From a virus (lineage: Duplodnaviria > Heunggongvirae > Uroviricota > Caudoviricetes), in IMG/VR virus record IMGVR_UViG_2648501149_000023: a stretch of 48,089 nucleotides of DNA, one strand, 5' to 3'. Position numbers and translations under genes: made by a program. Under the pieces are notes generated by a model. It was not told the DNA's origin. It searched no databases and worked only from the letters and a program-made list of their open reading frames with translations. Below are positions 22,942 through 45,389 of this stretch, one piece after another. The stretch's first letter is position 1. Each line of letters opens with the position of its first letter.

Positions 22942-23835
22942 ATGGACCAGATGGCAGAAAACACACCAGAAGTTGAAATCGAAACCGACGCGTCAGAGCA
23001 GATTCCTGATGATGTCGAACTGGCTGAAGAAGTCGAAACAGCAGATGGCAGTGAGTCCTCAGGAAATGATGCAGAGGAAGCTACTGACACTGATGACGAC
23101 GAATCAGAACAGGAATTCTACTTTGGTGACGAAAAGCTGGATTCGCCAACCAGCGAAGATGGCGCAGAGCATGGACTGGTAAAACACCTGCGCAAGACGA
23201 TTAAAGAGAAAGACCGTGAGCTGAAAGAGCTGATGCGTCAGTCTCAGAAACCCGTCGAGCAGCAGCCGGTAATCACTCAACCACCGCGAATGCCAAAACT
23301 GGATGATGAGGACATCGGTTTCGATGAAGAAATCTATCAGCAACGCATGGCTAAGTGGGCAGAGGATAACGGCAAATACCAGGAGCAAGTACGAGAGCGG
23401 AAACGAGAGGAAGAGGCGCGTACCGCAACGCTTCAGCAGAAAGCAGCCAATTACATGCATAGAGTAAAAGCACTGAAAGTGGCTGGTTACCAGGATGCAG
23501 AGCAGGCTGTACGCGAAGATGTTCCTGTTCACATTCAGGACATGATCCTTCTTGAGTCAGAGAAGCCGGAAATCGTTGTTCTGGCACTCGGTCGCAACGC
23601 TGAACTGCGCAAGCAACTGGCAGAAGCTACCAACTCCGTAGCAATTGGTCGTCTGCTGGAACGTATCGAATCGAAGGCCAGAATCATGCCAAAAGCAAAA
23701 ACCACGGCAGCCACAACCCCGACAGTTAAGGGGAGCAACGGCGCAGTAATCAATAACCTCGACAAATTGAAAGCCAAGGCGCTGGAAACTGGTGACTGGA
23801 CGCCGTATTTCGCCGCTAAAAAGGCAAAAAAATAA
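22942..23835 (+). CDS. Scaffolding protein (P22 gp8-like)
   Basis: 297-aa acidic/helical ORF between the portal and coat genes; C-terminal ...KLKAKALETGDWTPYFAAKKAKK resembles the gp8 coat-binding helix-turn-helix region. Confidence 0.75.
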   Translation: MDQMAENTPEVEIETDASEQIPDDVELAEEVETADGSESSGNDAEEATDTDDDESEQEFYFGDEKLDSPTSEDGAEHGLVKHLRKTIKEKDRELKELMRQSQKPVEQQPVITQPPRMPKLDDEDIGFDEEIYQQRMAKWAEDNGKYQEQVRERKREEEARTATLQQKAANYMHRVKALKVAGYQDAEQAVREDVPVHIQDMILLESEKPEIVVLALGRNAELRKQLAEATNSVAIGRLLERIESKARIMPKAKTTAATTPTVKGSNGAVINNLDKLKAKALETGDWTPYFAAKKAKK

Positions 23836-23853
23836 CCTATCGGAGCATTAAGC

Positions 23854-25107
23854 ATGGCTAACCAATTAGCAAAAGACCTTGAAATCATGTTCGAAAACTA
23901 CGTTGAAGGCTTTGAGGCCGCCTGCGTAGTTTCCCGTAACGCTAAAAAATTCCGTCCCGGTGATACAGCAATGCAGCGAGCAGGTGATGTTCTGTATCGT
24001 CCGCAGCATTACCACATGAATATTGAGGAAGGCCTCGACCTCAGCAGCAAAACGCCAACAGCACTGGTTCAGCGCCTTGTTCCTTCTGTGTTCAAGGAGC
24101 CGAAAAACATTCTGTACACTCTGGATGCGCGTGAAATGCGTGACCCGGAACATAAAACTGAAGCTGGTCGCGCCGCAGGTATGCGCCTTGCTGCACAGAT
24201 TGACTCTGACCTGATTTCCATGGTCACGCAGCGTGCTACTAACGTGATCACAATGGCTGACTCAACCACTGGTTCACAGGGCCGTGATTTGTGGAACTGT
24301 GCGGCAGGTATTGATGCCACCATGACGGCGATTGGTGTACCACAGGGTATCAACCGCCGCTCTTTCTGGAACCCCTTCAACTACAAAGACCTTGCTGGCG
24401 AGCTTGGTCACCGTGCCTATGCTCAGGGCGCAACCCTGACAGCATACGAAAAAGCGCAGATCCCTCCGGTTGCGTCCTTCGATAGCTACAAGACCGATAT
24501 TTCTGGTCGTGTTCCGAAGGGTACAGCAACTTCCCTGACGCTGGCGGCTGAACCTGCGCACAAGGTTGAAGCGAAAGATGCCAACGATATGCCAGTGGAT
24601 AACCGACAGGGGACTATTACGGTATCTGCATCTGGGTTGCAGGTTGGTGATGCGTTCACCATTGCTGGCGTGAATTCTGTACACCAGATCACCAAAGACA
24701 CCACCGGGCAGCCGCAGGTATTCCGCGTTCTGGCAGTAAGCGGAACGACAGTGACTATCTCCCCGAAAATTCTGCCGCCTGACAACGCAGATGTCGCCAG
24801 CCGTCCATATGCAAACGTTGATGCTAACGCGGCAAATGGTGCAGCAATCACCATTCTCAACAAAAATGCCGCACCGGCTAACCTGTTCTGGGCCGATGGT
24901 TCTGTTGAGCTGATGTACGGCAAACTGGCGTTCCCGACTGGTCAGGGTCCACAGGTAATGACAGCAACCACCGAGCAGGGCGCTACGCTGATCATGTCTT
25001 ACGCCTTCGACCACATCAAAGGCGTAACCACTGCTCGTTTCACCACTCTGTACGGTTGCTCTGTACTTGTTCCTGAATATACGGGCATCGTTATTGCCGG
25101 GCAGTAA
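23854..25107 (+). CDS. Major coat protein (P22 gp5-like)
   Basis: 417-aa ORF in the coat position with P22-coat-like segments (e.g. ...NLFWADGSVELMYGK...). Confidence 0.85.
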   Translation: MANQLAKDLEIMFENYVEGFEAACVVSRNAKKFRPGDTAMQRAGDVLYRPQHYHMNIEEGLDLSSKTPTALVQRLVPSVFKEPKNILYTLDAREMRDPEHKTEAGRAAGMRLAAQIDSDLISMVTQRATNVITMADSTTGSQGRDLWNCAAGIDATMTAIGVPQGINRRSFWNPFNYKDLAGELGHRAYAQGATLTAYEKAQIPPVASFDSYKTDISGRVPKGTATSLTLAAEPAHKVEAKDANDMPVDNRQGTITVSASGLQVGDAFTIAGVNSVHQITKDTTGQPQVFRVLAVSGTTVTISPKILPPDNADVASRPYANVDANAANGAAITILNKNAAPANLFWADGSVELMYGKLAFPTGQGPQVMTATTEQGATLIMSYAFDHIKGVTTARFTTLYGCSVLVPEYTGIVIAGQ

Positions 25108-25148
25108 TTTTGGTGGGGCTTCGGCCCCATTTTTATTGGGAGAAGACA

Positions 25149-25337
25149 ATGGCACGAACAATGCTCTATAAGCCTGGAAACATGATCACCTGTGGTCAGT
25201 TTGCTGTCGATTACATCATTGTTGATGACGAAGAAGTTAAATCTCACCTGAAAAAAGGCTGGGTAAAAACCCCTGAAGAAACCGCAACGAAGCAAAAAGT
25301 GGCTAAGGCGGAAGAAGATGGCGAAAACGAAGGGTGA
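25149..25337 (+). CDS. Small hypothetical protein after the coat gene (62 aa)
   Basis: ATG at 25149 preceded by GGGAGAAGA; MARTMLYKPGNMITCGQFAVDYIIVDDEEV... Confidence 0.4.
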   Translation: MARTMLYKPGNMITCGQFAVDYIIVDDEEVKSHLKKGWVKTPEETATKQKVAKAEEDGENEG

Positions 25338-25779
25338 TCTCGTTCTTAAGGCTTTACGAAAAGCCGGGCTGTATTCCAATGCCACGTTGACAGATGCCGA
25401 CCCTCAGGCAATAGAAGATGCCATTAATGACCTCGAAGACATGATGGCAGCATGGCAGGCGAAAGGTATCGAGCTTGGATATCAGTTTGCGGATACAGAA
25501 AACGGCATCATGCCGTTACCTGACGATGATTCAGGTATCCCTGCATGGGCAAATGATGGCGTCGCTTTGAAACTCGCTGTGCAAGTGTGCATGGATAACG
25601 TCATTCAGCCGTCAGACGCTCTCCTTACCGCTGCTGACAGTGCATATCAGACAATCTGTATCGCTTTAACCAAAATACCACCACTTGAGCGACGAAATGA
25701 CATGCCTCGCGGGGCGGGGTTAAAAAGCGCGTTTACGTGGAATCGGTTTTACATCGAGAAAGATGATCCGAGTACGTGA
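25318..25779 (+). CDS. Head-completion / tail accessory factor (P22 gp4-like)
   Basis: MAKTKGDLVLKALRKAGLYSNATLTDADPQAIEDAINDLEDMMAAWQ... parallels the P22 gp4 N-terminus (recall). Confidence 0.75.
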   Translation: MAKTKGDLVLKALRKAGLYSNATLTDADPQAIEDAINDLEDMMAAWQAKGIELGYQFADTENGIMPLPDDDSGIPAWANDGVALKLAVQVCMDNVIQPSDALLTAADSAYQTICIALTKIPPLERRNDMPRGAGLKSAFTWNRFYIEKDDPST

Positions 25780-25788
25780 GGTGAATAA

Positions 25789-27207
25789 ATGCCGATTCAG
25801 CAACTTCCGCTTATGAAAGGTGTCGGCAAAGACTTTCGAAACGCCGACTATATCGACTATCTGCCAGTGAATATGCTGGCTACGCCCAAAGAAATACTCA
25901 ACAGCAGCGGATATCTTCGCTCATTCCCGGGCATTGCCAAACGTTCTGATGTGAATGGTGTATCGCGCGGTGTCGAGTACAACATGGCGCAGAATGCTGT
26001 TTATCGCGTTTGCGGTGGCAAGCTGTACAAAGGAGAAAGTGAAGTCGGTGACATTGACGGAAGTGGTCGTGTATCAATGGCGCATGGTCGGACATCACAG
26101 GCGATAGGCGTTAATGGTCAACTGGTCGAGTATCGCTATGATGGCACGGTTAAAACCGTCTCAAACTGGCCTACAGACAGCGGATTCACACAGTACGAGT
26201 TAGGTTCAGTTCGCGACATTACGCGCTTACGTGGGCGCTATGCGTGGTCAAAAGACGGAACTGATTCATGGTTTATCACTGACCTTGAAGACGAATCGCA
26301 TCCTGACCGCTACAGCGCACAATATCGCGCAGAGTCTCAGCCTGACGGCATCATCGGCATCGGAACATGGCGAGATTTCATCGTCTGCTTTGGTTCATCG
26401 ACGATTGAATATTTCTCCCTGACTGGTGCAACCACCGTTGGTGCCGCTTTGTATGTTGCACAACCATCGCTGATGGTGCAGAAAGGTATTGCCGGAACCT
26501 ACTGTAAAACGCCATTCGCTGATTCCTATGCGTTCATCAGCAATCCGGCAACAGGTGCGCCATCTGTATACATCATCGGATCCGGTCAGGTTTCACTAAT
26601 CGCCAGCGCGAGCATTGAGAAAATTCTCCGCTCCTACACTGCTGATGAACTGGCTGATGGTGTGATGGAATCGCTGCGATTTGATGCTCATGAGTTGCTG
26701 ATTATCCACCTTCCGCGCCATGTTCTCGTGTACGACGCATCTTCAAGCGCCAATGGTCCGCAATGGTGTGTGTTGAAAACTGGCTTGTATGACGATGTGT
26801 ACCGCGCTATCGACTTCATTTACGAAGGCAATCAGATAACGTGCGGCGATAAGCTGGAATCCGTGACCGGGAAATTGCAGTTCGATATCAGCAGCCAGTA
26901 CGACAAGCAGCAGGAACACCTGCTGTTTACTCCGTTGTTCAAAGCGGATAACGCCCGGGTGTTCGACCTTGAGGTTGAATCTTCAACTGGCGTTGCGCAG
27001 TACGCTGACCGCCTGTTCCTCTCTGCAACCACTGACGGCATCAATTACGGGCGTGAGCAGATGATTGAGCAGAATGAACCGTTCGTTTACGACAAACGCG
27101 TTTTGTGGAAGCGTGTCGGGCGCATCAGGAAAAATGTCGGCTTCAAATTGCGCGTTATCACGAAATCACCTGTCACTCTGTCTGGCGCTCAGATAAGGAT
27201 TGAGTAA
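25789..27207 (+). CDS. Tail accessory factor (P22 gp10-like)
   Basis: 472-aa product [49 protein letters not shown]... closely matches P22 gp10 (recall). Confidence 0.9.
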
Positions 27208-28055
27208 TGGCTGATTCGAATCTCAACACCCCTGTTATTGTGCAGGCGACGCGGCTCGATACATCAATCCTTCCACGCAATATCTTCTCGCAGTCGTATC
27301 TGCTTTACGTTATCGCACAGAGCACTGATGTTGGTAACGTGGCTAACAAGGCCAACGAGGCCGGACAGGGCGCTTATGATGCACAGGTCAGGAACGATGA
27401 GCAGGATGTGATTCTCGCTGACCATGAGCAGCGAATTTCTGCTGCGGAAGCAACGCTTGTTAATCATGAGGAGCGAATCAGCCAGGCAGAATCAACTCTT
27501 CAGGAACATGAAACGCGAATCGCTCAGAATGAAAGCGATATTGCGTCGCTTGATACCAGAGTTCAGTCGCTGGAGTCGCAGGTTTCAGACCATGAATCGC
27601 GCATCGATTCTCTGGAGTATGCCACTACTCGCAAGAAGTCAGAGGTTGTTTACTCTGGCGTATCAGTAACCATCCCGACAGCGCCGACCAACCTTGTTAG
27701 CCTGCTGAAAACGCTCACGCCGTCATCCGGCTCGTTGGCACCATTCTTCGACACCGTTAACAACAAGATGGTTGTGTTCAACGAGAACAAAACCTTGTTC
27801 TTCAAGCTGTCGATCGTCGGGACGTGGCCCAGCGGAACCGCCAACAGGTCAATGCAGCTAACCTTTTCCGGCTCTGTTCCTGACACACTGGTAAGCAGTC
27901 GCAACTCGGCGACAACAACCGACAACATCCTGTTAGCTACGTTCTTCAGCGTGGATAAAGACGGATTTCTTGCCACAAATGGCAGTACGTTAACCATCCA
28001 GTCAAATGGTGCGGCGTTTACTGCCACAAACATCAAGATAATCGCGGAGCAGTAA
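27207..28055 (+). CDS. Tail needle (P22 gp26-like N-terminus with an extended C-terminal domain)
   Basis: N-terminus [43 protein letters not shown]... matches gp26; heptad-repeat coiled coil; about 100 extra C-terminal residues suggest an Sf6-type knob. Confidence 0.8.
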
Positions 28056-28510
28056 TGATTCAGTTCAAACCAACGCGAAACATCGACCTGATCGAAGCAG
28101 TCGGAAATCACCCTGACATTATTGCCGGAAGCAACAACGGTGATGGATACGACTACAAGCCTGAATGCCGTTACTTTGAGGTGAACGTGCACGGTCAGTT
28201 TGGCGGCATTGTTTACTATCAGGAGATTCAGCCGCTGACATTCGATTGCCACGCCATGTACCTGCCAGAGGTTCGTGGATTCAGCAAGGAAATAGGGCTG
28301 GCGTTTTGGCGATACATTTTGACCAAGACCACCGTTCAGTGCGTCACATCATTTGCTGCACGCAAATTCCGCCACGGTCAGATGTACTGCGCAATGATTG
28401 GCCTTAAGCGTGTCGGAACCATCAAGAAATACTTTAAAGGCGTGGATGACGTGACGTTTTACAGCGCCACACGCGAAGAACTAATCGACTTCCTGAATCA
28501 CGGGAGATAG
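28055..28510 (+). CDS. gp14-like head/ejection-associated protein
   Basis: 151-aa ORF at the position of P22 gene 14; assignment by synteny only. Confidence 0.45.
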   Translation: MIQFKPTRNIDLIEAVGNHPDIIAGSNNGDGYDYKPECRYFEVNVHGQFGGIVYYQEIQPLTFDCHAMYLPEVRGFSKEIGLAFWRYILTKTTVQCVTSFAARKFRHGQMYCAMIGLKRVGTIKKYFKGVDDVTFYSATREELIDFLNHGR

Positions 28511-28512
28511 CC

Positions 28513-29205
28513 ATGTTATATGCATTTAAGCTGGGCAGAAAACTGCGCGGCGAGGAACCTTATTGCCCTGAAAAAGGCGGGAAAGGTGGCAGCTCTGATA
28601 AAAGCGCAAAGTATGCAGCAGAAGCCCAGAAGTATGCCGCAGACCTGCAAAATCAGCAGTTCAACACCATCATGAACAACCTGAAGCTGTTTACTCCTCT
28701 GGCTGATAAGTATGTCGGCAGCCTCGAGAACTTATCGTCTCTGGAGGGGCAAGGTCAGGCGCTAAACCAGTATTACAACTCTCAGCAGTACAAAGATCTT
28801 GCTGGTCAGGCTCGCTATCAGAGTCTGGCGGCAGCGGAAGCAACAGGTGGATTGGGTTCCACTGCAACCGGTAATCAGTTAGCAACAATCGCACCAACGC
28901 TTGGTCAGCAGTGGCTGTCTGGTCAGATGAACAACTACCAGAATCTGGCAAACATTGGTCTTGGCGCACTGCAAGGTCAGGCAAACGCCGGGCAGACATA
29001 TGCCAACAACATGAGTCAGATTTCGCAGCAAAGTGCGGCTCTTGCAGCGGCAAATGCCAACAGACCATCAGCAATGCAATCTGCTATTGGCGGAGGTGCG
29101 TCTGGTGCTATTGCTGGGGCTGGACTTGCGAAATTAATCGGTTCATCAACTCCGTGGGGGGCTGCGATCGGCGGCGGTCTTGGTCTGCTTGGCTCGTTGT
29201 TTTAA
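28513..29205 (+). CDS. Ejection protein (P22 gp7-like)
   Basis: 230-aa Gln/Ala/Gly-rich ORF at the gp7 position and of the gp7 size. Confidence 0.6.
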   Translation: MLYAFKLGRKLRGEEPYCPEKGGKGGSSDKSAKYAAEAQKYAADLQNQQFNTIMNNLKLFTPLADKYVGSLENLSSLEGQGQALNQYYNSQQYKDLAGQARYQSLAAAEATGGLGSTATGNQLATIAPTLGQQWLSGQMNNYQNLANIGLGALQGQANAGQTYANNMSQISQQSAALAAANANRPSAMQSAIGGGASGAIAGAGLAKLIGSSTPWGAAIGGGLGLLGSLF

Positions 29206-29214
29206 GGGGTAATC

Positions 29215-30564
29215 ATGGCTACGTGGCAACAGGGTATTAATTCTGGTGGTTTTCTGGCTGGCATCGGTACGCAAAATGAGAATGCGCCAAAGGCAAGCGA
29301 CATTAACGCAACGCTTGGTCTGATCCGCGAAAACAATGAACTGGCTCGCTCAGGTGCAAATAACGTTGGTCTGACCGCGTTACGTGGTCTGGCTGGAGTT
29401 GCTGATATTTACAATCAGGAACAGCAACAGAAAGCGATTAGTGCGTTCAATAAGGTTCACGCTGATGCATGGGCTTCTGGTGATCCATCGGGACTATTTA
29501 AGTTTGCCCAGGAAAATCCAGCGTTTGTTGCACAGGCACAACAGGCGTTTTCTGGTCTTAATGATCAGCAACGCAACGATATGGGCGATTTAGCCATGAG
29601 GGCTAACGTCGCTCTTTCTCAGGGACCGGAAGCCTACAGTAAATTCATTACTGACAACAAGGACAGGTTAAATCGCGTTGGTGCTAATGCTGACTGGATG
29701 ATTCAGACAGGTATCCAGAATCCAGAGCAGCTATCACACATGCTGACTACTATGTCTCTCGGTGCGCTTGGGCCAGAAAAGGCGTTTGCTGTTCAGGACA
29801 AGATGGTTGGTCGCCAGCAGGAGCAGCAAAGAATTAACGAAACCATTCGCAATAATGACATGACGAATGCGAGGGCTATTAGGGGGCAGGATCTTTCCTA
29901 TAAGGCTCAAATGGCAAGACTGAATCACGACAAGTATGTGTTTAAGCAGTCACAGGCGGCCCTTGAAAGAGCAGGACAACTTCAGGATATGGATGTTTTG
30001 TCTCTTAACTCACAGATAGCAGCGACGGGAATTGATCCTCTAACCGGTAAAGCTGCAACGTCAGCCAGAATGTCTCAGGCTAAGAGATGGCTTGATGGCA
30101 ACAATAATTACAACAATGCGTTGATTACTGGTGAGCGAGGGATAGAGAAAATAGATTCTTTGCTTGGTAAGAAGGAGCTTGAAGGTATCGGTCGCTTCGA
30201 AGGAAGAAATATAGATGGCTTCACAAGTGCTGAAGGGCTTGCAAACCGTAATGCGATAGAAGAATTAAAGTCGGGTGCGTTTGTCCAGAACGTGCAGACT
30301 ATGCGAGGTATGGGTAGCCTCTCCAATGCTGAAGGCCAAAAACTGGAAAACCTGATCGCGAAACTCGATATAACACAGCCTGAAGAGGTCGTCAGAAAAC
30401 AGTTATCTGAAATACGATCTCAATATTCTGTATTTCAAAAGGTTGCAGCAAGGGAGGCTGAATCAATGGGATACAGTTCATCAGGTTATGACACATATGT
30501 TAGTGAGCGAAAATCAGGAAGCGACAGCAATAAGTCCGGTTTCTCGTCTTTATGGGGTGATTAA
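29215..30564 (+). CDS. Ejection protein (P22 gp20-like)
   Basis: 449-aa ORF at the gp20 position; synteny and size. Confidence 0.6.
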
Positions 30565-32438
30565 TGGCTAAAGCATGGAAAGATGTTATCGCTTCTCCAC
30601 AGTATCAGGCGTTAACTGAAGAACAGAAAGCACAGGCTCAAGCGCAATATTTTGATGAGGTTGTTGCCCCTAAGGCTGGTGACAAATGGGCTGAAGCAAG
30701 AGATCAGTTTTATGCAGCATACCCTCCGCCTCAGCAGCAGAAAGAAGAACCATCATTGATGCAACAAGCTGGCGATTGGCTCACTGGTGGTCAAAGTGCA
30801 GGGCAAATTGCAGAGCAGGCTGGTCGTGGTCTGGTAAACATACCATTTGACGTATTGCAGGGTGGCGCAAGTCTGATTAATGCAATCAGCCAGGGGCTTG
30901 GTGGCTCCAAGGTTTTGGATGATGTTTATCGCCCTGTCGAGCGGCCGACAGACCCTTATGCGCAAGCTGGAGAAACAATTGGCGGGTATTTAGTTCCAGG
31001 AGTTGGAACGGCAGGAAGCATGGCTATTGGATCACTGGCAGAGGCCGCAAATCAGAAAGGCGATTTCGCACAAAATGCAGCCAAAAATGCCGGAGTTAAC
31101 CTTGCCGCTCAGGGTGTTCTTTCCGCAGCAGCAAAGGGAATAGGGCGTGGAATAACGGCTATAAAAGGTGATATTGCGCCAGAAGTGGCGAAGAAAATTG
31201 CCACATCAGAATCGATGGGCGTGACACCAATGACATCTGATGTTATCCCGCCGAAAAATGCTTTCACTCGTGGCCTTACTCAGGATGCCGAGGGGGCTTT
31301 GCTCGGGACAGGCTCAAAGAGAGCGGAGCAATATGCAACGCGTAGTAAACTGGTAAGCAATTATTTTGACCGTTTTGGTGAGTACAACCCTGATGATGTG
31401 GTGAAATCTCTTACCACCACGTTAAGGGGGCGGAAGGATGCCGCTGGCGCTGTTATCAATGACGTCACCAATAAAATGGGTAATGCCGCAGTTGATACCA
31501 CAAATACCATGAATGCTCTGAATACAGCGATCGCAAGACAGGAACGGCTTGGGACGTCTGCCAATCAAAGCCTGCTTACATCCTTGCGTAACCTACGTGA
31601 AGAATTAGCAAACCCTGCAACTGATTTGGATGTTACGTTTGATCTCTTGCGTCAGCACAGAACAGCATTTAGATCTAATGTTCAGGGAGATGCTATGGTC
31701 TTCCCCAACCAGGCAAAAGCAGCTACCAATATGGTAGAGAATGCAATGTCAAAAGACCTTCGTAACGCAGTTGCTAAAAACCTCGGTGCATCAGACGCAG
31801 CAAAATACCTTAAAGCAAATTCCGATTATGCAAACGTTTATAATAAGGTGCTTAATAAAAACATTGCCAACAAGCTCAACAAGGCAAGCAGTGAAGCCAG
31901 TCCTGAACTTATAAATACCGTTGTATTAAGCAGAAAACCATCTGACGTGAAACGAATCTGGAGCGCACTGGATGATAAAGGGAAAGATGCTATGCGTGCA
32001 GCTTACGTCAGCAAAATAGCGGAAAAGGCCGGCGACTCTCCAGCCAAGTTCATCACTGAAGTTAATAAGCTGAAATCTCAGTCAGGAGGTGAAATTTACA
32101 ACACTATTTTTTCTGGAAAGCACATGAAAGAACTTGATGCTCTTAATGAAGTTCTACAGCAAACAGCAAGGTCAGACACCGCAAATGTAGTAACTCAGAC
32201 GGGGCAATCGCAAGCCAACAGGATAAGGACGATTGGCGCAACTGCGACTCTTGGCGTATCAATGGGGCTTGAGGCTGGTTTCGGTGCAATGATGCGCTTG
32301 TATGAGTCCAAAGCAGCAAGGAATGCGCTCTTACGTCTGGCAAACACTAAAGCTGGAACGCCAGCCTATGAAAGAGCGCTGAATAACGCCGCAAATGCCA
32401 TCAGACCAATACTTGCCAATGATGCAACTGATCGCTAA
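30564..32438 (+). CDS. Ejection protein (P22 gp16-like)
   Basis: 624-aa ORF at the gp16 position; synteny and size. Confidence 0.6.
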
Positions 32439-32459
32439 GGGTTGATGTCATGGATGTTG

Positions 32460-33098
32460 TTAATTGCGAATGGAATCGCGGAACTCTTTGCTTGATAGAA
32501 AAGGATCTGTTCTCCTTAACTCATCATAGTTTTTATTAAACTTTCTTGCTTCACCTGGGTATCTGTTGAACAAAACATTGCAGAAAAAAGAGAGCAATAA
32601 CTCACATATGAATGCTAATACCCTGAAAAATAAAGGTATAAAAAGAAGGGAAGGTTCATTGAAGTCTCTATTCCAAACAAAATAGACAATCATCCCGACA
32701 TACCAAATTGATATCCCTATACTGATGATTGTTCCAACAGAGGTAACTACGATCCCGATTAAGTCGGACAGTCTGTTTGCCAGTAACTCATTTGAGTATC
32801 TTGCAATCATATACCGCCAACATTTTGCAATATCATCCTGATCTGTAGAGTCTTCTGGAATAGCTAGGCTTCTACATATTGAAGTAGCTCTTTTTTTCTC
32901 AACTCTTTTTGAGATCCATCCATTAAAGAGATACATCAACACCTGCGTTGCTATTCCTGCACCAAGTGATATCAAAGACATCCCCAAAAATCTCCATCCT
33001 GGAGATAGTGACTGGTACTGCCAAACAAAAAAAATTAAAAAACCCAATGAGCCTATGACATAGGCTGATGTATCGCTATATATATCTATTTTTTTCAT
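32460..33098 (-). CDS. Four-TM inner-membrane protein (SieA position; possible superinfection-exclusion or Abi effector)
   Basis: ATG at 33098 preceded by AAGGAG; four hydrophobic segments (YVIGSLGFLIFFVWQY, FLGMSLISLGAGIATQVLMYLF, LIGIVVTSVGTIISIGISIWYVGMIVYFVW, LLFIPLFFRVLAFICELLLSFFC); downstream of and co-oriented with the S24-like gene. Confidence 0.6.
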   Translation of the reverse strand: MKKIDIYSDTSAYVIGSLGFLIFFVWQYQSLSPGWRFLGMSLISLGAGIATQVLMYLFNGWISKRVEKKRATSICRSLAIPEDSTDQDDIAKCWRYMIARYSNELLANRLSDLIGIVVTSVGTIISIGISIWYVGMIVYFVWNRDFNEPSLLFIPLFFRVLAFICELLLSFFCNVLFNRYPGEARKFNKNYDELRRTDPFLSSKEFRDSIRN

Positions 33099-33162
33099 TG
33101 AGTAGCCACTCCTTAGTTTTGAGCAGAACACCGGATGATAATGTGTCGCTTCCTAAAGGATA

Positions 33163-33804
33163 TCAAAGCAACGGGATTTCAAGGTAAACTGCGGTTGCCA
33201 AAATACTAACATCTTCATTTCTAACAAGAATATTAGGATACATTGGGTTTAGGGATACTAAGTTTGTCTCTATTTCACCAATGTAAACCTGCTTGAAGCT
33301 CAATATTTGCTCTTTATCCAATGATGCTATTACATAATCTTTGCTTTTAGCTTTTACTAGAGGGCTGAACGTGACAACTGATCCTCTGGGAAAGCTAATA
33401 CCTGAACTTGTAGTCATAGCTTCACCTTCAATAGTCAATGCAAATGCAGAGTCACCAACATTGTATATTGCCGGATGAAATCTAGACGATGAATGTTCAC
33501 CTGTGTTTAGGTAATGCATAACTTCATCTAGTTTGAGGATTGGTATTTGCTTTACCAGAACGTCAGGCATGACGTTTTTTGTTCCAGGCCCCTGACCTTC
33601 ACCCAGAGCTAACCACTCAGCCGTAGTGCCTAATGCGTTGGCTAATGCCTGCAATACACGAAGCCGTGGTTTAGCCTCACCACCCTCGTATGCAGCTATT
33701 TGACGTTGAACAACACCAGCTAATTTTGACAACTGCGCCTGCGTCATACCCCTGGACTGTCTTGCCAGAGATACTCTTGATGGGAATTGATCGTCAAAAT
33801 TCAT
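33163..33804 (-). CDS. Repressor-like HTH plus S24 LexA-like domain protein with the catalytic Ser replaced by Ala
   Basis: N-terminal XRE-type HTH (...MTQAQLSKLAGVVQRQIAAYEGG...); C-terminal domain aligns with this window's own cI: IEGEAMTTS versus VEGNSMTAP (Ser to Ala) and LSFKQV versus FTFKKL (Lys kept); ends ...NPMYPNI like cI ...NPQYPMI. Confidence 0.75.
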   Translation of the reverse strand: MNFDDQFPSRVSLARQSRGMTQAQLSKLAGVVQRQIAAYEGGEAKPRLRVLQALANALGTTAEWLALGEGQGPGTKNVMPDVLVKQIPILKLDEVMHYLNTGEHSSSRFHPAIYNVGDSAFALTIEGEAMTTSSGISFPRGSVVTFSPLVKAKSKDYVIASLDKEQILSFKQVYIGEIETNLVSLNPMYPNILVRNEDVSILATAVYLEIPLL

Positions 33805-33903
33805 TAGTTCACCATAAAAAATTCATTGACTCATACTGAGTGTGAGTGAATAATCAAACTACAAAAAGTGAGATTATGAGTTTTTCAAAAACAGGAGTGC
33901 ATA
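33805..33903. promoter_or_regulatory. Divergent promoter/operator region between the S24-like gene and the arc-like gene
   Basis: 99-bp AT-rich interval with inverted/direct repeats (GACTCATA...TATGAGTT; ACTCA-tac-TGAGT). Confidence 0.4.
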
Positions 33904-34077
33904 ATGACTGAAAAGATATCTTCCATCAAGCCGCGTCAGGTTCGTTTTACAGAAAAGGTTGATTCACATATCCGCGAATCAGCAAAAAGATGCCATAGGT
34001 CAATTCAGGCAGAGATAGCTTATCGAATGGAGTTATTGATGAAACTTGAGGCAAAGGGCGATGTTGTCATCCAATAA
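33904..34077 (+). CDS. Arc/Mnt-family ribbon-helix-helix repressor (Arc-like, 57 aa)
   Basis: Hand translation MTEKISSIKPRQVRFTEKVDSHIRESAKRCHRSIQAEIAYRMELLMKLEAKGDVVIQ has an RHH-type pattern (beta strand, then ...RS...EI...); below the ORF-track cutoff. Confidence 0.55.
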   Translation: MTEKISSIKPRQVRFTEKVDSHIRESAKRCHRSIQAEIAYRMELLMKLEAKGDVVIQ

Positions 34078-34160
34078 AAATAGTGAAGCCCGGCAGTGCG
34101 CGAACACAAACCGGGCCTCTATGTCAGTAACCGTATGCAAGGAAACTAACATGAATATTG
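34078..34160 (-). ncRNA. Possible sar-like antisense RNA across the ant RBS (hairpin plus U-run on the minus strand)
   Basis: GCCCGG...CCGGGC hairpin at about 34084-34112 is followed on the minus strand by TTCACTATTTTTATTGG; the transcript would be complementary to the ant RBS and start codon; a TACAAT -10-like hexamer lies on the minus strand inside the ant 5' end. Start is not mapped. Confidence 0.3.
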
Positions 34161-34777
34161 TAGCAAAATCAGATTACAACTTCCACGGAGTTGAGTTGGT
34201 GCCCACCCGTGATATGCATGGTGTTTGGTTTACATCATCTAATATTGCATCTGCACTTAAATATGCAAATAGCCGTGCAGTAACAATGATTTATAACAAG
34301 TATAGCGATGAGTTTAGCGCCGGAATGACTCAGGTACTCGAAGTGAGTACCTCAGGAAATTATCGCAAAAAAGTGCGAGTTTTCTCACTACGCGGTGCCC
34401 ACCTAATCGCGATGTTTGCTCGCACTCCGGTAGCCAAAGAGTTCCGCCGCTGGGTGCTGGATATTTTGGATCGGCAGGCAGAATGCTCACCGATTGCAAA
34501 ACAGTTTACTGACGAAGAACTGGTTAATCTCTGCTACTTACAATTGTGGATGGAGAAGAGTCAACAAATGTGCAAACACATCTACCCAGGAATGAAGCAA
34601 ATTGGTTCTGAGCTTTCAGGAAGAATTTACGATATTGCATATGAGACTCGCTATATGTCAGAAGAAACCAAGAAATCACTTCTTCGTGAAATGAAGAATC
34701 TTGATACCAACAATTTTGTCGTAAAGAACGCTCAGCCAATGCTGACAAAACTGCGCGGCGAGGAATGGATTCATTGA
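34151..34777 (+). CDS. Antirepressor with Bro-N/AntA-type N-terminal domain
   Basis: ATG at 34151 preceded by AAGGA; ...FHGVELVPTRDMHGVWFTSSNIASALKYANSRAVTMIYNKYSDEF...KVRVFSLRGAHLIAMFARTPVAKEFRRWVLDIL... fits the Bro-N pattern (recall). Confidence 0.65.
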   Translation: MNIVAKSDYNFHGVELVPTRDMHGVWFTSSNIASALKYANSRAVTMIYNKYSDEFSAGMTQVLEVSTSGNYRKKVRVFSLRGAHLIAMFARTPVAKEFRRWVLDILDRQAECSPIAKQFTDEELVNLCYLQLWMEKSQQMCKHIYPGMKQIGSELSGRIYDIAYETRYMSEETKKSLLREMKNLDTNNFVVKNAQPMLTKLRGEEWIH

Positions 34778-34865
34778 TTGGTGCGCCGGACGGCGCAAAA
34801 AGAAAACCGCCAGTGTGCTGCTGGCGGCCTATGTCACACCCTTACTACCACATAAGGAATGCCTA

Positions 34866-35591
34866 ATGACTTTGAAGAATGTAGCAAACATCGGATCCGT
34901 TGTCACGGATAAAACCATTGACAGCCAAAGTCTTCTGATGATGGTTAATGAAGCTCGCAAGTTATGTGGAGAGCCATCAGTACGTAACAACAAATTCATC
35001 GAGAAAATTGAGGATGAATTGGAGGGCGAGACCTACACAAAAAGTGTAGGTCGGAAAAACGGGGCTGACATTGATGTTATCTCCATGACTATCAAGCAGG
35101 CGCTTCGTGTTGCTGCTCGCGAATCTAAAGCAGTTCGCCGAACACTTGTAGACAAACTTGAAAGTATGCAAGAAGCGCACATTAAAAGCGGTAAATCGTC
35201 GAGTGGACTTGTTGAGTATCGCCAGGCTCGAACATTGAAAATGACGGTTGAAGCTGTTACCAATCTGTTAGATTTGATGCCAAATCTTGCGCCGGAAGCA
35301 AAGCAGACTGCGGCAGCAAGCATAATCAACCCGATAGTTGGTTTTAATGCAATACCTCTTCCAGCAATAGAAGAGCATTACTACTCAGCAGGGGAGGTTG
35401 CAGAGCAGCTTGGAGTAACGGCAAACAAGATTGGTCGCATTGCTAACGCAAACAACCTCAAAACTGAGCAGTACGGGAAGTTCTTCTTGGATAAATCTGC
35501 GCATTCAAGCAAACAGGTGGAAGCATTCCGCTACAATGCGGAGGGTGTTAAAGCACTACAACACCTGATTCATGGGAGCAATGTTGCATAA
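34866..35591 (+). CDS. Hypothetical immI-region protein (242 aa; possible antirepressor-associated or Rha-like)
   Basis: ATG at 34866 preceded by AAGGA; weak resemblance of ...EARKLCGEPSVRNNKFIEKIE... to Rha-type N-termini; function unassigned. Confidence 0.45.
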   Translation: MTLKNVANIGSVVTDKTIDSQSLLMMVNEARKLCGEPSVRNNKFIEKIEDELEGETYTKSVGRKNGADIDVISMTIKQALRVAARESKAVRRTLVDKLESMQEAHIKSGKSSSGLVEYRQARTLKMTVEAVTNLLDLMPNLAPEAKQTAAASIINPIVGFNAIPLPAIEEHYYSAGEVAEQLGVTANKIGRIANANNLKTEQYGKFFLDKSAHSSKQVEAFRYNAEGVKALQHLIHGSNVA

Positions 35592-35812
35592 TGGCAAAGA
35601 AAAGATATGGCATTATGCCGCCAAGAATCAAAGGAAGAGCCAGGGTAAAAGGAGATGCTGGAAGGTATCACATTCTTGGAGTTCTGTGGCATGAGAGAGC
35701 TTTAATTTTAAGTAGACCTCATGGGTACATTGAAAAGGTATCTATAGATAGAGTAGAGATTCTTCCCCTTACACCTGAAGAAGAAGAAACGTACGGACTT
35801 TTTGATAACTAA
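35591..35812 (+). CDS. Hypothetical small protein (73 aa)
   Basis: ORF overlapping the upstream stop; followed by a strong terminator. Confidence 0.4.
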   Translation: MAKKRYGIMPPRIKGRARVKGDAGRYHILGVLWHERALILSRPHGYIEKVSIDRVEILPLTPEEEETYGLFDN

Positions 35813-35821
35813 CCAACTAAA

Positions 35822-35850
35822 CCCGCTTAATTGCGGGTTTTTTCTTTTCT
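35822..35850 (+). terminator. Intrinsic terminator (ACCCGC/GCGGGT hairpin plus T-run)
   Basis: ACCCGCttaattGCGGGTTTTTTCTTTTC just after the 35591..35812 ORF; the minus-strand Mnt-like gene ends within it. Confidence 0.7.
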
Positions 35851-36084
35851 AAGGATATCAGCCACAACTTCTTTTACTCGTTCCGAGATTAATGAGGCCA
35901 GCCTCTCTTCTTCATCACGATACCCGCTTACAGGTGATGGTTTGGAGAGTGATTCTTCCATCGTAGCCACAATTTCGGAATTGATAGACCTGTTATTCAT
36001 TTTTGCACGTTGCTTAATCTTAGCGTGCAACTCGTGCGTAAGCCTCAAGTGGAACTGCGCCTCATCGTATTTGCTGTACATCAT
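35827..36084 (-). CDS. mnt: Mnt-like ribbon-helix-helix repressor (85 aa)
   Basis: ...AQFHLRLTHELHAKIKQRAKMNNRSINSEIVATMEESLSKPSPVSGYRDEEERLA... parallels P22 Mnt (...RSMNSELLQIVQDALSKPSPVTGYRND..., recall); ATG at 36084 with GGTGAGG RBS. The longer ORF-track version (to 36558) runs antisense into the tailspike gene start. Confidence 0.7.
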   Translation of the reverse strand: MMYSKYDEAQFHLRLTHELHAKIKQRAKMNNRSINSEIVATMEESLSKPSPVSGYRDEEERLASLISERVKEVVADILRKEKTRN

Positions 36085-36216
36085 CAATGCCTCACCAAAT
36101 GGGTGGAATGGCATCGTAAAACCTACTGTACAAATCAACAATCGTACCATTTCGGTATGCAACAAACACCAACCGTAGCCATGCTTCGGTGATTCCTTGT
36201 ATCTGGAGCAAATTAA

Positions 36217-38382
36217 ATGACAGATTCGATAAATGCCAATGTTGTAGTGAGTATGCCTTCGCAACTCTTCACTATGGCGCGTTCTTTTAAAGCCGTAGCC
36301 AATGGTAAAATTTATATCGGTAAAATTGACACTGACCCGGTAAACCCTGAAAACCAGATTCAGGTTTATATAGAGAACGAAGACGGCTCTCACGTTCCTG
36401 TTTCGCAACCAATCATCATTAACGCTGCTGGTTATCCGGTATATAACGGACAAATTGCCAAATTCGTTACTGTACAGGGCCATTCTATGGCTGTTTATGA
36501 TGCATACGGTGCGCAGCAGTTTTATTTCCCTAATGTGTTGAAGTATGAGCCGGATCAATTAAGGTTGGAGCTTGAATCATCTGGTGGAGCAGGATTGATA
36601 GGTGGTGTTTCGAAGCCTATTACTTTTTTTGGTGCTATTGGTGATGGATTAACAAACAATACGCAGGCATTTAACGATGCAGAGATATTAGAATTCAATG
36701 ACATCTACATTCCTGATGGTGTTTATAATGTAAATAATATTAACTTAAATAAGAGATATTGGGGGCCTGGCATAGTAGTGATTAATTACCAGACTGAATA
36801 TTCTGGCTCTGGTGTTAACGACATGACCGTGTCAGGAATATACAATGGACAGCAAGATCTAAATGCAATTGTAAGAATAAAAGAAGCTTCAAATCCTGAT
36901 AAGCTTGAATTCAGTACAGATAATGGAGTTACATGGCATGACACGATAGACGTGTACAATCCAATCGATGACAGTGTATCTCCGCAACCAATCGTAATAC
37001 TTGCAGGCGGGGTGGATTTTTTCGTGAGTGGATTGAAGATAAACTTTTCTTCAACCACTGGACATACAGTAAATGACTCATGGTCATTTTTCATTCCTTC
37101 CAATCCATCAGTAATAAACACGGGAAGTGGCAGCATCGTTAAATCAGGAAGCGTTATTTTTAATGTTAGCGGAAACAATGATACTAATACTTCCGCTGGA
37201 AAAGACTCATTAGGCGGTGGAAACGTAGGAGCTAACAATACCGCATATGGGTGGAAGAGTTTGCACTCAAACACTACAGGATACGCAAATACCGCGTCTG
37301 GGATTCAGTCTATGGAAAACAATAAGACTGGTAAAAACAATTGTGCATACGGTGCTGATTCTCTAAGAGCTAACGTATCTGGTTCTGATAACGTAGCGGT
37401 TGGGGTCTTTGCGTCCGGAGCAAACACAACCGGGTACGGTAACACTGGACTTGGTAACGATGCCAATAGGTACAATGAAACAGGATTCGGAAATACCGCA
37501 GCGGGTGTGCAGGCACTGTACCACAACAAGGCCGGTAATGAGAACACAGCTTTCGGTGAATACGCATTACGCGGAGGAAATTCCAGCCTACCTACGGGAA
37601 CATCCATTCAGTATTCCGTCGCTGTAGGAGCTAAAGCCGGTTTCAACGCGTTAGGTAATAATAATACAGCTATAGGTTACGAGGCGCTATATTCTGCATC
37701 AGGATCTGATAATGTTGGTATTGGATTCGATGCAGGGTTTAAAGTAACGGCTGGTGCTTTCAATGTATTTTTAGGTTCTAATTCTGGTAACGGGTCAGAG
37801 CAGGCTACAGATGTGACAAACTGCGTCCTTATCGGAGATAATACAAAATCAACCGGAAGTAACGCAGTAGCTATCGGTAGTGGGGTAATTGCCGCTCAGA
37901 ATACTGTAGCTATAGGTAATAGTGAGCATGAATTATTCTTGCATTATGGGAAATTTATACCACAAATTGATAATGCTTTTGATATTGGTGGGCCGGATGC
38001 GAGATATAAAACAATATATGCAACTACAGGAATGATAAATACATCAAATGAAATGTTGAAAACAAAACTAACAGACATTGATGTTGCTGAAAAAAAAGCT
38101 GCACTAGAAATAAAAGATAATATTAAAAAGTTTAAGATGCTGGATTCTGTTGAGGTAAAGGGATTTGATGGTGCTAGGTGGCATTTTGGTGTTGGAGCTC
38201 AAACTGTTGGTAATATAATGAGGAAGCACGGACTTGATCCTAGTAAGTATGGGTTTTGGTGTCACGATAAAACGCATCGCGAACACATGACTGGAAATAT
38301 AGATATCTTTTGTGAAAGTTATGGTATAAGATATGACGAACTTGCAATGTTTATATTGGCATCAATATCTTTATGTGAATAA
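36217..38382 (+). CDS. Tailspike protein (P22 gp9-type head-binding domain, distinct receptor-binding domain)
   Basis: Residues 1 to about 110 ([60 protein letters not shown]...[13 protein letters not shown]...NVLKYEPDQ) match the P22 gp9 N-terminus (recall); the rest is N/G/T-rich repeat sequence (GNTxxG...); C-terminal SNEMLKTKL... segment could be an intramolecular chaperone module. Confidence 0.85.
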
Positions 38383-38408
38383 ACTTTGTAAATGAAGTGA
38401 ATTGCAAA

Positions 38409-42621: not shown

Positions 42622-42721
42622 TTCCTGTTTTATTCAATGAGGGTTGCCCGGCAACCCTCAGTGCTCATTGATTCTTATCTGTGTATCACCGTCATCATTC
42701 TCATCTGAGAACCTATCGAAA

Positions 42722-42904
42722 TTAGCGACAGCCTTCTTCTGTATGCAGCAAGGCAAAAAGTTCTGTAACTCCATTGTTATTAACCGCACTGGTTACTAAC
42801 ACGTTGTGCGCTCCAGCTTCCCGTAACCAACATTTCACCAAAGATGTTTGTTCCATACTGGCTAAATCTGCTTTGGTTACTACTCCAATGACCGGGTGAT
42901 TCAT
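42722..42904 (-). pseudogene. yoeF: Truncated EutP/PduV-like GTPase C-terminal fragment (yoeF-like)
   Basis: ...NHPVIGVVTKADLASMEQTSLVKCWLREAGAHNVLVTSAVNNNGVTELFALLHTEEGCR resembles the C-terminus of EutP-family proteins; the upstream part of the ORF (to 43078) is antisense to the IS66-like fragment and is not genuine coding sequence. Confidence 0.5.
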
Positions 42905-43131
42905 GGCCCGGTAGGGCGTTTTTACCTCTAATTCCTGCTTCAGCGCTGAGATTCCTGCTTGTTGCCGGAAAAGCAGGCACCTGCCGTCTGAACGGTATCG
43001 ATCCGGAAGCGTATCTGCGCCATATTCTGAGCATACTGCCGGAATGGCCCTCCAACCGTGTTGACGAACTCCTGCCATGGAACGTAGTTCTCACCAATAA
43101 ATAAGCGTCAATACGGTGCTCCGTTGACGCT
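42905..43131 (+). mobile_element. IS66-family element remnant (3' end of transposase ORF plus terminal inverted repeat)
   Basis: Plus-frame translation ...GKAGTCRLNGIDPEAYLRHILSILPEWPSNRVDELLPWNVVLTNK* resembles IS66 transposase C-termini; followed by AGCGTCAATACGGTGCTCCGTTGACGCTTAC, ending in a GTAAGCG-type terminus on the opposite strand. Left boundary is approximate. Confidence 0.5.
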
Positions 43132-43518
43132 TACTTTAATCCGTTTTCTGAGCTTAGATTTTTCTGTTCCTACCCAGACCGTGGATTTGGAATTCATTTT
43201 TTGTCAGGTCAATGCTAATCGTTAAAACGGCCATAACGCACCTCCACTGGAAGGTTTATCAGTAATATCCTACCGTTGCTTCATGGTCGGGGCGTCCATT
43301 CCATTATTATCGGTTTTCCTTTCTGTTTATAAATGAAAACGCCAGCTGTATTCAGGCTGGCGTCAGGGGAAATGAAGCCTGTTGAGTGAGATTCACCGGT
43401 TCTGGTGCAGAAGCTGCAGATGGCGCAGGGTAAGGACATCTTCTCTTGCCTGCTTAATACAGGACAACAGTGCTGTTTCTGTGGTTAATGGCACTATACC
43501 CTGCATCACTGCATTGTC

Positions 43519-43713
43519 TTACAGCAACTGGTGAGGGCTGGCATAAGTTGCCGGTGTTTCGGTAGAGTCACGGTCATCCACCACGCGGAGTGAATAACCG
43601 TTTTCAGCGGCCTTATTAATCAGCTCAGTGATATTAACACCATCAATGTCAACGACAATGTGCCCCATATCCAGCGCCTGTACGTTAACGCTGTCGGCTT
43701 CCAGTGTCATCAT
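43519..43713 (-). CDS. yeeW: YeeW (CP4-44-type small protein)
   Basis: MMTLEADSVNVQALDMGHIVVDIDGVNITELINKAAENGYSLRVVDDRDSTETPATYASPHQLL; its ATG overlaps the cbtA-frame stop (ATGA). Confidence 0.7.
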   Translation of the reverse strand: MMTLEADSVNVQALDMGHIVVDIDGVNITELINKAAENGYSLRVVDDRDSTETPATYASPHQLL

Positions 43714-44083
43714 TTCGCCTCCGGATACTTACCCAGGGTAATGTTATTTACCGTTCTGTAATTGTCGCGGGTCATCAGGCCGGTCGCCCTGCGAGCCCGG
43801 AGGATATCGATGCTGTTTATTAACTGAGAGCGGGTACAGGCGCTGAATCCCGGCTGGTCGGTAGCACCAGCGCGTATTTTTCCACGAGAAAGTTCACCGC
43901 ATCACACAGTGAAATGCCTGCCTCAATATGCTGCTCAATCACACGTTCATCGGCAAAAGGTGTGTCATTCTGTGTGAGGCCATAGTGCTGGTCCAGCAGT
44001 CGGGACAGCAGTATCTGCCAGATTTCAACAGGAGACGGGCGAGAACTGGCCGCCTGCCCGGGTAATACAGGTAATGTTTTCAT
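43710..44083 (-). pseudogene. cbtA: cbtA (yeeV) toxin gene disrupted by a frameshift
   Basis: N-terminal 71 codons ([73 protein letters not shown]) then frame change near 43858-43868; the remaining CbtA-like sequence ([49 protein letters not shown]) continues in the -1 frame to 43710. Confidence 0.75.
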
Positions 44084-44171
44084 ACTGAAGATTTTCCTGA
44101 TATGCAGATATAAAAATGGAAAAGTGGCGTGGTGAAAACACCAGGCCGTAGCAGAAGGCTATTCTGGAGAG

Positions 44172-44540
44172 TTAATTTTTCATTTCGGGCGTCGGATAAA
44201 CAGCCAGATAAACGTAACCACAACTGCTGAGGGTATCGGCTTTGCAGGTCAGCCCTTTTGCATACAGCGTGACGGTATGCTGATGGCGGGGATTCAGTTC
44301 ACCGCTGGTGAGCATGAGTTCCAGTTGTTTCATCAGCAGCGGAAAGGCCTGGTCCAGGTGGTACGCATCTGCATCGCTGAACAGGCCTCTGATACCGGCG
44401 CGGTCGGCAAGGTAATGCAACCGGTTACCCTCCTGCACCAGACGTGCCCCGAAACAGGGCGTCACGGTGCAGGGCAGCCCCCACCAGGGGCGGTCGTGAT
44501 TGTCGTCGGGAAGTGTTGTCCCGGGGAGTGTGTCTGACAC
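44172..44540 (-). CDS. cbeA: CbeA (YeeU) antitoxin
   Basis: 122-aa product MSDTLPGTTLPDDNHDRPWWGLPCTVTPCFGARLVQEGNRLHYLADRAGIRGLF... matches YeeU/CbeA (recall). Confidence 0.9.
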   Translation of the reverse strand: MSDTLPGTTLPDDNHDRPWWGLPCTVTPCFGARLVQEGNRLHYLADRAGIRGLFSDADAYHLDQAFPLLMKQLELMLTSGELNPRHQHTVTLYAKGLTCKADTLSSCGYVYLAVYPTPEMKN

Positions 44541-44613: not shown

Positions 44614-44835
44614 TCAGTTCAGGGTGACGCTCATCAGCCGGACATACGGACCAAAACTGTCCTTACGGCGTTCAGCAAACACGGCCAGCACACCGGGAAT
44701 ATCCTGCACTTCACGACCGGTATACGCTTCAGCACTGCCGTGCCAGCGGTATTTACCGGTACAGAACGGAAAAAGACGGGATGTCGGATGTTGTTGGTGA
44801 ATACGCATGGCTTCACCACGGGTGATAATTTTCAT
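44614..44835 (-). CDS. yeeT: YeeT (DUF987)
   Basis: 73-aa product MKIITRGEAMRIHQQHPTSRLFPFCTGKYRWHGSAEAYTGREVQDIPGVLAVFAERRKD... Confidence 0.85.
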   Translation of the reverse strand: MKIITRGEAMRIHQQHPTSRLFPFCTGKYRWHGSAEAYTGREVQDIPGVLAVFAERRKDSFGPYVRLMSVTLN

Positions 44836-44897: not shown

Positions 44898-45374
44898 TTA
44901 AAGCAGACTATGTTCGGCAAAGGAGAAAACCTGGTTGCCACCGACTATCAGATGGTCCGGCACCCGGATATCCACCAGGCCCAGTGCCTGTACCAGACGT
45001 TCGGTGATAAGCCGGTCTGCCTTACTGGGTGTGACTTCACCGGACGGGTGATTGTGTGCCAGTACCACGGCAGCGGCATTGTGGTACAGGGCGCGTTTAA
45101 TCACTTCCCGGGGATGGACTTCCGTGCGGTTGATGGTGCCGGTGAAGAGGGTTTCACCGGCAATCAGCTGATTCTGGTTGTTCAGATACAGCACCCGGAA
45201 TTCTTCACGCTCCAGTCCCGCCATGTTCAGAATCAGCCATTCCCGTGCTGCACGGGTGGAGGTGAAGGCCACGCCGGGTTCATGAAGATGGCGGTCCAGG
45301 GTTTTCAGGGCCCGTTGAATGAGGCTGCGCTCGCCGGGCGTCATCTCTCCGGGCAGAAAGGAAAGTTGTTGCAT
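44898..45374 (-). CDS. yeeS: RadC-like JAB-domain protein YeeS
   Basis: MQQLSFLPGEMTPGERSLIQRALKTLD...VVLAHNHPSGEVTPSKADRLIT... (JAMM H-x-H...S...D motif); ATG at 45374 with GGAGAG RBS. Confidence 0.85.
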   Translation of the reverse strand: MQQLSFLPGEMTPGERSLIQRALKTLDRHLHEPGVAFTSTRAAREWLILNMAGLEREEFRVLYLNNQNQLIAGETLFTGTINRTEVHPREVIKRALYHNAAAVVLAHNHPSGEVTPSKADRLITERLVQALGLVDIRVPDHLIVGGNQVFSFAEHSLL

Positions 45375-45389
45375 TGTGCTTCTCTCCAT

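Follow-up and report, generated by a model that had tools for sequence, protein, structure and literature searches.

The minus-strand cbtA gene at 43710-44083 of the 48,089-nucleotide stretch of DNA analysed here (the window) has lost a single base and is frameshifted, and it lies beside an intact cbeA antitoxin gene. This arrangement very probably represents a genuine, inherited loss-of-function allele of cbtA, situated in a remnant of a CP4-44-type island beside tmaR-yeeA-sbmC, which has left cbeA as a locally orphan antitoxin and which, as a common polymorphism of E. coli, has probably been moved between lineages and paralogous islands by recombination. The intact counterpart is the cbeA-cbtA pair of K-12 MG1655 (yeeU-yeeV, b2004/b2005), a type IV toxin-antitoxin module of the cryptic prophage CP4-44. 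The frameshift and the orphan antitoxin at this locus are real, but the allele is already annotated and very common, and the module to which it belongs has been well studied.

The cbtA lesion and the flanking genes

The whole CbtA-homologous span of the window measures 374 nt instead of 375, and nucleotide alignment with the K-12 MG1655 allele places the missing base, the G of codon 74 (Arg74), between 43864 and 43863, where GTG CGT ACC has become GTG C-T ACC. This is the one gap within cbtA in an alignment that otherwise shows 4 substitutions over the 1061 nt of cbeA-cbtA-yeeW, and the same G is missing in comparison with four further intact alleles. Translated in frame 0 from the ATG at 44083, the gene encodes a product of 87 amino acids (ORF 43820-44083), consisting of 73 native residues (MKTLPV...VEKYALV) and 14 out-of-frame residues that precede a TAA stop at 43822-43820. 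The frame two bases later encodes the remaining 50 residues of CbtA as far as a TGA at 43712-43710, this portion (residues 75-124 and the stop) occupying 43710-43862.

The same division is seen in homology searches. With K-12 CbtA as a tblastn query, residues 1-73 are found at 44083-43865 and residues 75-124 at 43862-43713 in the other frame, the latter with 100% identity. The PF06755 domain is likewise split, with profile positions 1-73 of 112 in frame 0 (E=1e-36) and positions 74-112 in the -1 frame (E=2e-13), both matches lying above the 25-bit cut-off. An uninterrupted reading frame of about 124 amino acids over the whole PF06755 domain, as would be expected of a functional family member, is absent; because the ORF ends at 87 codons and the domain is distributed over two frames, the gene is classed as a CbtA-family pseudogene. 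Its limits coincide exactly with the boundaries of the RefSeq pseudogene in ATCC 11775, and RefSeq gives the same boundaries in APEC O1.

An earlier note on this DNA, made from the letters of the window, had proposed a one-base deletion that frameshifts cbtA beside an intact cbeA, with the remainder of the toxin continuing in the -1 frame to a stop that overlaps the yeeW start. Both proposals are borne out by the MG1655 alignment, the Pfam matches and the tblastn search, and the single gap found on comparison with intact cbtA lies within the interval 43850-43875 that the note had marked for inspection. The note had also placed the break after codon 71. The break itself is confirmed, but its position is not: the frame is lost after codon 73, inside codon 74.

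The genes upstream of cbtA, all on the minus strand, had been described as intact, and their Pfam matches agree with that description. The cbeA gene (yeeU, 44172-44540) encodes 122 amino acids that match PF06154 over its full length (positions 1-100 of 101, E=4e-53), and it is separated from cbtA by a spacer of 88 nt (44084-44171), the length also reported for the K-12 pair (PMC5371832). Further upstream, yeeT (44614-44835) matches DUF987 over positions 1-65 of 65 and yeeS (44898-45389), which encodes a RadC-like JAB domain, matches the RadC profile over positions 2-120 of 121. Downstream of cbtA, yeeW (43519-43713) encodes 64 amino acids that comprise the N-terminal domain of DUF5983 only, as judged from its ORF, Pfam matches and the RefSeq comparison, and its ATG (43713-43711) shares a 4-nt overlap with the TGA of cbtA.

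In its architecture the locus closely resembles the CP4-44 module: the order yeeS-yeeT-cbeA-cbtA-yeeW followed by tmaR-yeeA-sbmC-dacD, the 88-nt spacer and the Pfam families are the same in both. The two differ in that the window lacks the G of codon 74, retains only 73 native residues of CbtA and carries L38Q. The A at 43971 that underlies L38Q is common only to the window, ATCC 11775 and APEC O1 among the compared strains. The genes upstream of yeeS differ also, being antirestriction and DUF932 genes in the window and yeeR and flu in K-12.

The deletion is a common, inherited allele

The frequency of the lesion was assessed by exact short-sequence matches among 5426 complete E. coli genomes. 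A 71-nt query that spans the deletion matches exactly in 1499 chromosome records and the corresponding 72-mer with the G restored matches in 1784 records, while a control query in which the run of five A residues located 20 nt upstream of the lesion is shortened to four matches in at most 2 of the 5426 genomes. Taken together, these counts identify the deletion as an inherited and common allele. Over longer distances the agreement is similarly close, in that the 1061-nt cbeA-cbtA-yeeW segment aligns with one mismatch and no gaps to many complete E. coli chromosomes. The nearest relatives of the window over 5 kb, ATCC 11775 (99.76%) and APEC O1, both carry the deletion, and their lone difference from the window within the 1061 nt is at 43624, in yeeW.

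The allele is annotated in RefSeq as 'cbtA, frameshifted' in ATCC 11775 (EAS44_RS10510), APEC O1 (APECO1_RS11150) and O157:H7 PV15-279 (ECpv15279_RS14500), as well as in several isolates from pigs, ducks and humans. Compared with the first three, the window has the identical allele, deletion, boundaries and neighbours; it differs in a private synonymous G at 43624 and in the presence of an upstream P22-like prophage, neither of which is substantial.

It could be argued that the missing base reflects a mistake in the sequencing or assembly of the window and that the real gene is intact. The window is known as an assembled sequence, and single-base indels are the commonest assembly error. Nevertheless, this explanation is so improbable as to be the least credible of those considered here: the deletion site, GTGC|TACC, lies outside any homopolymer run, and 1499 complete chromosomes, sequenced independently in many laboratories and on many platforms, share the same deletion, that of the type strain ATCC 11775 among them. 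The true error-prone site, the A5 run 20 nt upstream, is the one that is deleted in at most 2 genomes, and both of the closest relatives of the window have the lesion. The assembly artefact that the earlier note had asked to be excluded is thereby excluded by these chromosomes and by the 'frameshifted' annotation in RefSeq.

A second class of 87-residue CbtA truncations, with the sequence ...FLVENT(R/H)W(C/Y)VPTSRDS..., is found in the protein database and results from the loss of one A from the run corresponding to 43877-43881. These proteins end at the same out-of-frame stop and mostly form singleton clusters (P0011, P0012, P0015-P0018, P0048, P0052 and P0055). Given this distribution, and the occurrence of the A5 loss in at most 2 genomes in the haplotype of the window, the class probably reflects sporadic mutation or homopolymer sequencing error. 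Annotated frameshifts were also encountered in yeeA of 95JB1 (fetched locus L010, 5781-6840) and in yeeS of BL12 (L008, 2528-3003), which may be real lesions or assembly errors.

No literature on the frameshifted cbtA allele or on its population frequency was found, the search returning generic mentions of yeeV/yeeU only, and the frequency is the only mildly new point here. Taken alone, the locus is of little importance, as a further case of a toxin-antitoxin module whose toxin was the first part to decay. At the level of the species, cbtA has the appearance of a balanced polymorphism of function, with about 1500 disarmed and about 1800 intact copies in the same haplotype among the 5426 genomes. 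Because disarmed copies are common, gene-hit counts that score 'cbtA/cbeA present' overestimate the number of functional toxins.

Absence of recoding signals

A frameshifted gene might still yield full-length toxin, at low output, through programmed or adventitious -1 frameshifting or through transcriptional slippage. Several features of the locus are compatible with this: the -1 frame contains no stop codon between a point 11 codons ahead of the lesion and the native terminator, the zone in which the two frames overlap includes an A AAA site (GAA AAA, codons 68-69, 43877-43881) at which tRNA-Lys could occasionally slip, and the nine carriers of the allele that were compared all have an undamaged 3' part of the gene. 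However, a scan of the sequence for an X XXY YYZ slippery heptamer in frame 0 found none anywhere in cbtA, the A5 run being the only feature of this kind, and an Rfam scan of the whole window detected no RNA element. A run of five A residues is not known to be long enough for efficient transcriptional slippage.

Moreover, apart from the deletion itself, no sequence differences around the lesion distinguish the carriers from intact alleles. The A5 run and its flanks are identical in intact alleles (the flanks are those of the 1784 intact records), and nothing has therefore co-evolved with the deletion. Nor is the frameshift conserved in the family, since the homologues are single-ORF proteins of about 125 amino acids and a single species contains both the deleted and the intact form (1499 versus 1784 records). 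Judged from these features, programmed frameshifting, which the earlier note had named as a circumstance that would undo its reading, is unlikely and finds no support here, and rare adventitious slippage at the deletion allele is possible; that the full-length toxin is still made by any of these routes is very unlikely, only slightly less so than a sequencing error.

In the downstream direction, a 2026 paper (PMC13294457) discusses whether a programmed frameshift may occur downstream of DUF5983 genes adjacent to cbtA. The yeeW product is the 64-residue DUF5983 N-terminal domain in K-12 as it is in the window, and a full-length DUF5983 protein of 162 amino acids is encoded downstream of the cbtA copy near the LEE of O111:H2 12A (fetched locus L006, 4191-4679). 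The private G of the window at 43624 occupies the third position of yeeW codon 30, where it is synonymous; the base is A in all 13 compared strains.

Predicted consequences for the toxin

Loss of the codon 74 G shifts the frame, and on the reading preferred here, that of an inherited loss-of-function allele, translation yields an 87-residue polypeptide that lacks the conserved C-terminal 51 residues and most probably is neither stable nor toxic. In a family alignment, intact members show little or no variation over residues 74-112; R74, T75, D76, F80 and S81 are invariant and a stretch of 18 residues is nearly so. No solved structure of CbtA was identified, a sequence search of the PDB giving two chance-level matches (E=0.11). 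An AlphaFold2 model of an intact homologue, of moderate confidence (mean pLDDT 72.9, pTM 0.60) and built from a shallow alignment of 23 sequences, is all-helical, with five helices at residues 18-34, 46-54, 59-74, 82-101 and 106-116. In this model the break falls at the end of the third helix and removes helices 82-101 and 106-116. The missing conserved C-terminus thus makes a loss of toxicity likely, as far as sequence conservation and a predicted fold can indicate.

As read from the sequence, no separate translation of the C-terminal part of CbtA is possible; the -1 frame offers no start codon before Met104, which opens an ORF of only 21 amino acids. Ribosomes that translate the frameshifted cbtA terminate 107 nt short of the yeeW ATG, and any translational coupling to yeeW is therefore probably lost.

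The fragment does retain R15 and F65 among its 73 native residues, and these are the residues genetically needed for binding of MreB and FtsZ, respectively (PMC5624674); with both kept, residual activity is possible. Data on truncations of CbtA were not found in Heller 2017. An alternative proposal is accordingly that the 87-residue N-terminal fragment has a function of its own, binding or modulating FtsZ and MreB in attenuated form, and that the allele is kept by selection. In addition to the retained residues, the high frequency of the allele in several lineages and islands and the complete lack of secondary lesions in nine carriers speak for such a function. Against it, few parts of the family are as conserved as the segment that is lost, which contains two of the five predicted helices, RefSeq classes the gene as a pseudogene, and the low diversity extends over the whole module, cbtA being statistically no different from dead remnants nearby (see below). 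Since the diversity is low module-wide, youth and recombination suffice to explain the low diversity of cbtA, and a functional fragment appears improbable, although less so than continued synthesis of the complete toxin.

The orphan antitoxin

The window contains one copy of cbeA and of cbtA, as determined by tblastn. Its CbeA differs from K-12 CbeA at one residue, and its cbeA is identical in nucleotide sequence to the cbeA of ATCC 11775, which encodes WP_001285585.1. In WP3-W18-ESBL-08 and VTB96815v this protein is paired with intact cbtA genes, and the CbeA of the window is therefore presumably functional.

In K-12, CbeA bundles FtsZ and MreB without binding CbtA, the mode of action that defines the module as type IV (PMC5624674; PMC5371832); it stabilises the assemblies of both proteins and protects against other FtsZ inhibitors as well (PMC5624674). 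An antitoxin that counteracts its partner through bundling of FtsZ and MreB, rather than through binding of the toxin, would make loss of that toxin harmless, and cbeA would simply remain. It may still buffer paralogous toxins of the CbtA family, together with other inhibitors of FtsZ or MreB. The suggestion of the earlier note that the orphan CbeA could neutralise paralogous CbtA-family toxins is consistent with published work on K-12, where each of the antitoxins CbeA, YafW and YfjZ neutralises all three toxins CbtA, YkfI and YpjF (PMC5371832). Places matching the module number 4 in the ATCC 11775 chromosome and 3 in that of APEC O1.

The concept of an orphan antitoxin is not new to this family, YagB of the K-12 prophage CP4-6 having been proposed as one (PMC5371832). 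Like the cbeA of the window, yagB belongs to the CbeA antitoxin family and has no working CbtA-family toxin gene as a neighbour. The two differ in the state of the toxin gene, for which a homologue is wholly absent next to yagB, whereas in the window it is recognisable and bears a single lesion.

A somewhat wider proposal is that the disarmed module as a whole is kept by selection, with either cbeA acting as an anti-addiction or immunity factor or the 87-residue product acting as an FtsZ/MreB modulator. In its anti-addiction version, cbeA would give protection from the CbtA-family toxins of P4-like islands, whether these are incoming or already resident. If true, either version would explain why the allele reaches about 28% across phylogroups, why it has passed into other islands and why secondary lesions are lacking. 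We regard this proposal as improbable too, if marginally the least so of the alternatives. Since CbeA-family antitoxins cross-neutralise paralogous toxins, strains that carry the allele offer natural material for the question whether orphan type IV antitoxins serve as anti-addiction factors.

Diversity and spread of the allele

Variation was compared among nine carriers, namely seven fetched at even steps through the ranking of the 71-nt matches together with ATCC 11775 and APEC O1, and against five intact alleles. In six of the seven stepped carriers (O157:H7 PV15-279, 95JB1 and isolates from pigs, ducks and humans) the allele occupies the site adjacent to tmaR-yeeA-sbmC, and ATCC 11775 and APEC O1 also have it at the tmaR-adjacent site. 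The seventh, O111:H2 12A, carries it in another island, beside the LEE effector gene espF (L006, 3818-4194), and this copy too is marked as frameshifted by RefSeq.

Many 87-residue clusters with an identical 14-residue out-of-frame tail exist in the protein database (236, 151 and 65 members, among others), and some of them have N-termini resembling YpjF or YkfI (P0020, P0025, P0040 and P0049). N-termini of this kind on clusters with the same lesion indicate mosaicism, with the lesion recombined into other members of the family. The presence of the G deletion in copies of paralogue type and in a copy that flanks the LEE suggests that paralogous P4-like islands have exchanged sequence by recombination or gene conversion.

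The module of the carriers varies less than the flanking core gene yeeA. Relative to the window, they show 1-6 substitutions in the 1022-nt cbeA-yeeW module and 1-18 in 1059 nt of yeeA, and variable sites number 8 of 1027 in the module against 28 of 1060 in yeeA (p=0.001; 27 when substitution sites are counted). Within the module, 2 of 375 sites in the pseudogene vary among the nine carriers, neither of them in the 156 nt that follow the break, and cbeA has 3 in 369, two of which look non-synonymous from the RefSeq protein accessions. Outside it, 10 of 474 sites vary in sbmC and 16 of 897 in the dead remnants that separate yeeW from tmaR. The lower variability of the pseudogene compared with these remnants falls short of significance (2/375 versus 16/897, p=0.12).

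No secondary lesions were seen in the pseudogene of any of the nine carriers, and the G is the sole difference between the intact K-12 allele and the alleles of most carriers. The simplest reading of these sequences is that the deletion is recent by comparison with the lineages that carry it and has spread by recombination, leaving too little time for further lesions to accumulate, although the absence of secondary lesions could also reflect constraint instead of youth. The proposed recombinational spread is drawn from a comparison of the nine carriers.

The island and its surroundings

The assignment to a CP4-44-type island follows from the tmaR(yeeX)-yeeA-sbmC-dacD neighbours, the yeeS-yeeT-cbeA-cbtA-yeeW block and the junction remnants, all of which are present in the window. 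Gene order at the island matches that of MG1655 and ATCC 11775, including degraded remnants resembling yoeD/yoeF. At the junction between the island and tmaR (42640-43518), these consist of fragments of a DUF957 gene, a transposase and an EutP/PduV-like gene, all of them dead (yoeD/yoeF in K-12), and the same remnants are annotated by RefSeq in ATCC 11775.

Upstream of dacD-sbmC, at approximately 23100-38400, the window contains a P22-like prophage with genes for a tailspike, gp10, a major capsid protein and DNA-transfer proteins. The region 23100-48089 reaches a maximum coverage of 81% at about 96.5% identity in any complete E. coli genome, so that this particular combination of prophage and island is absent from the complete-genome collection.
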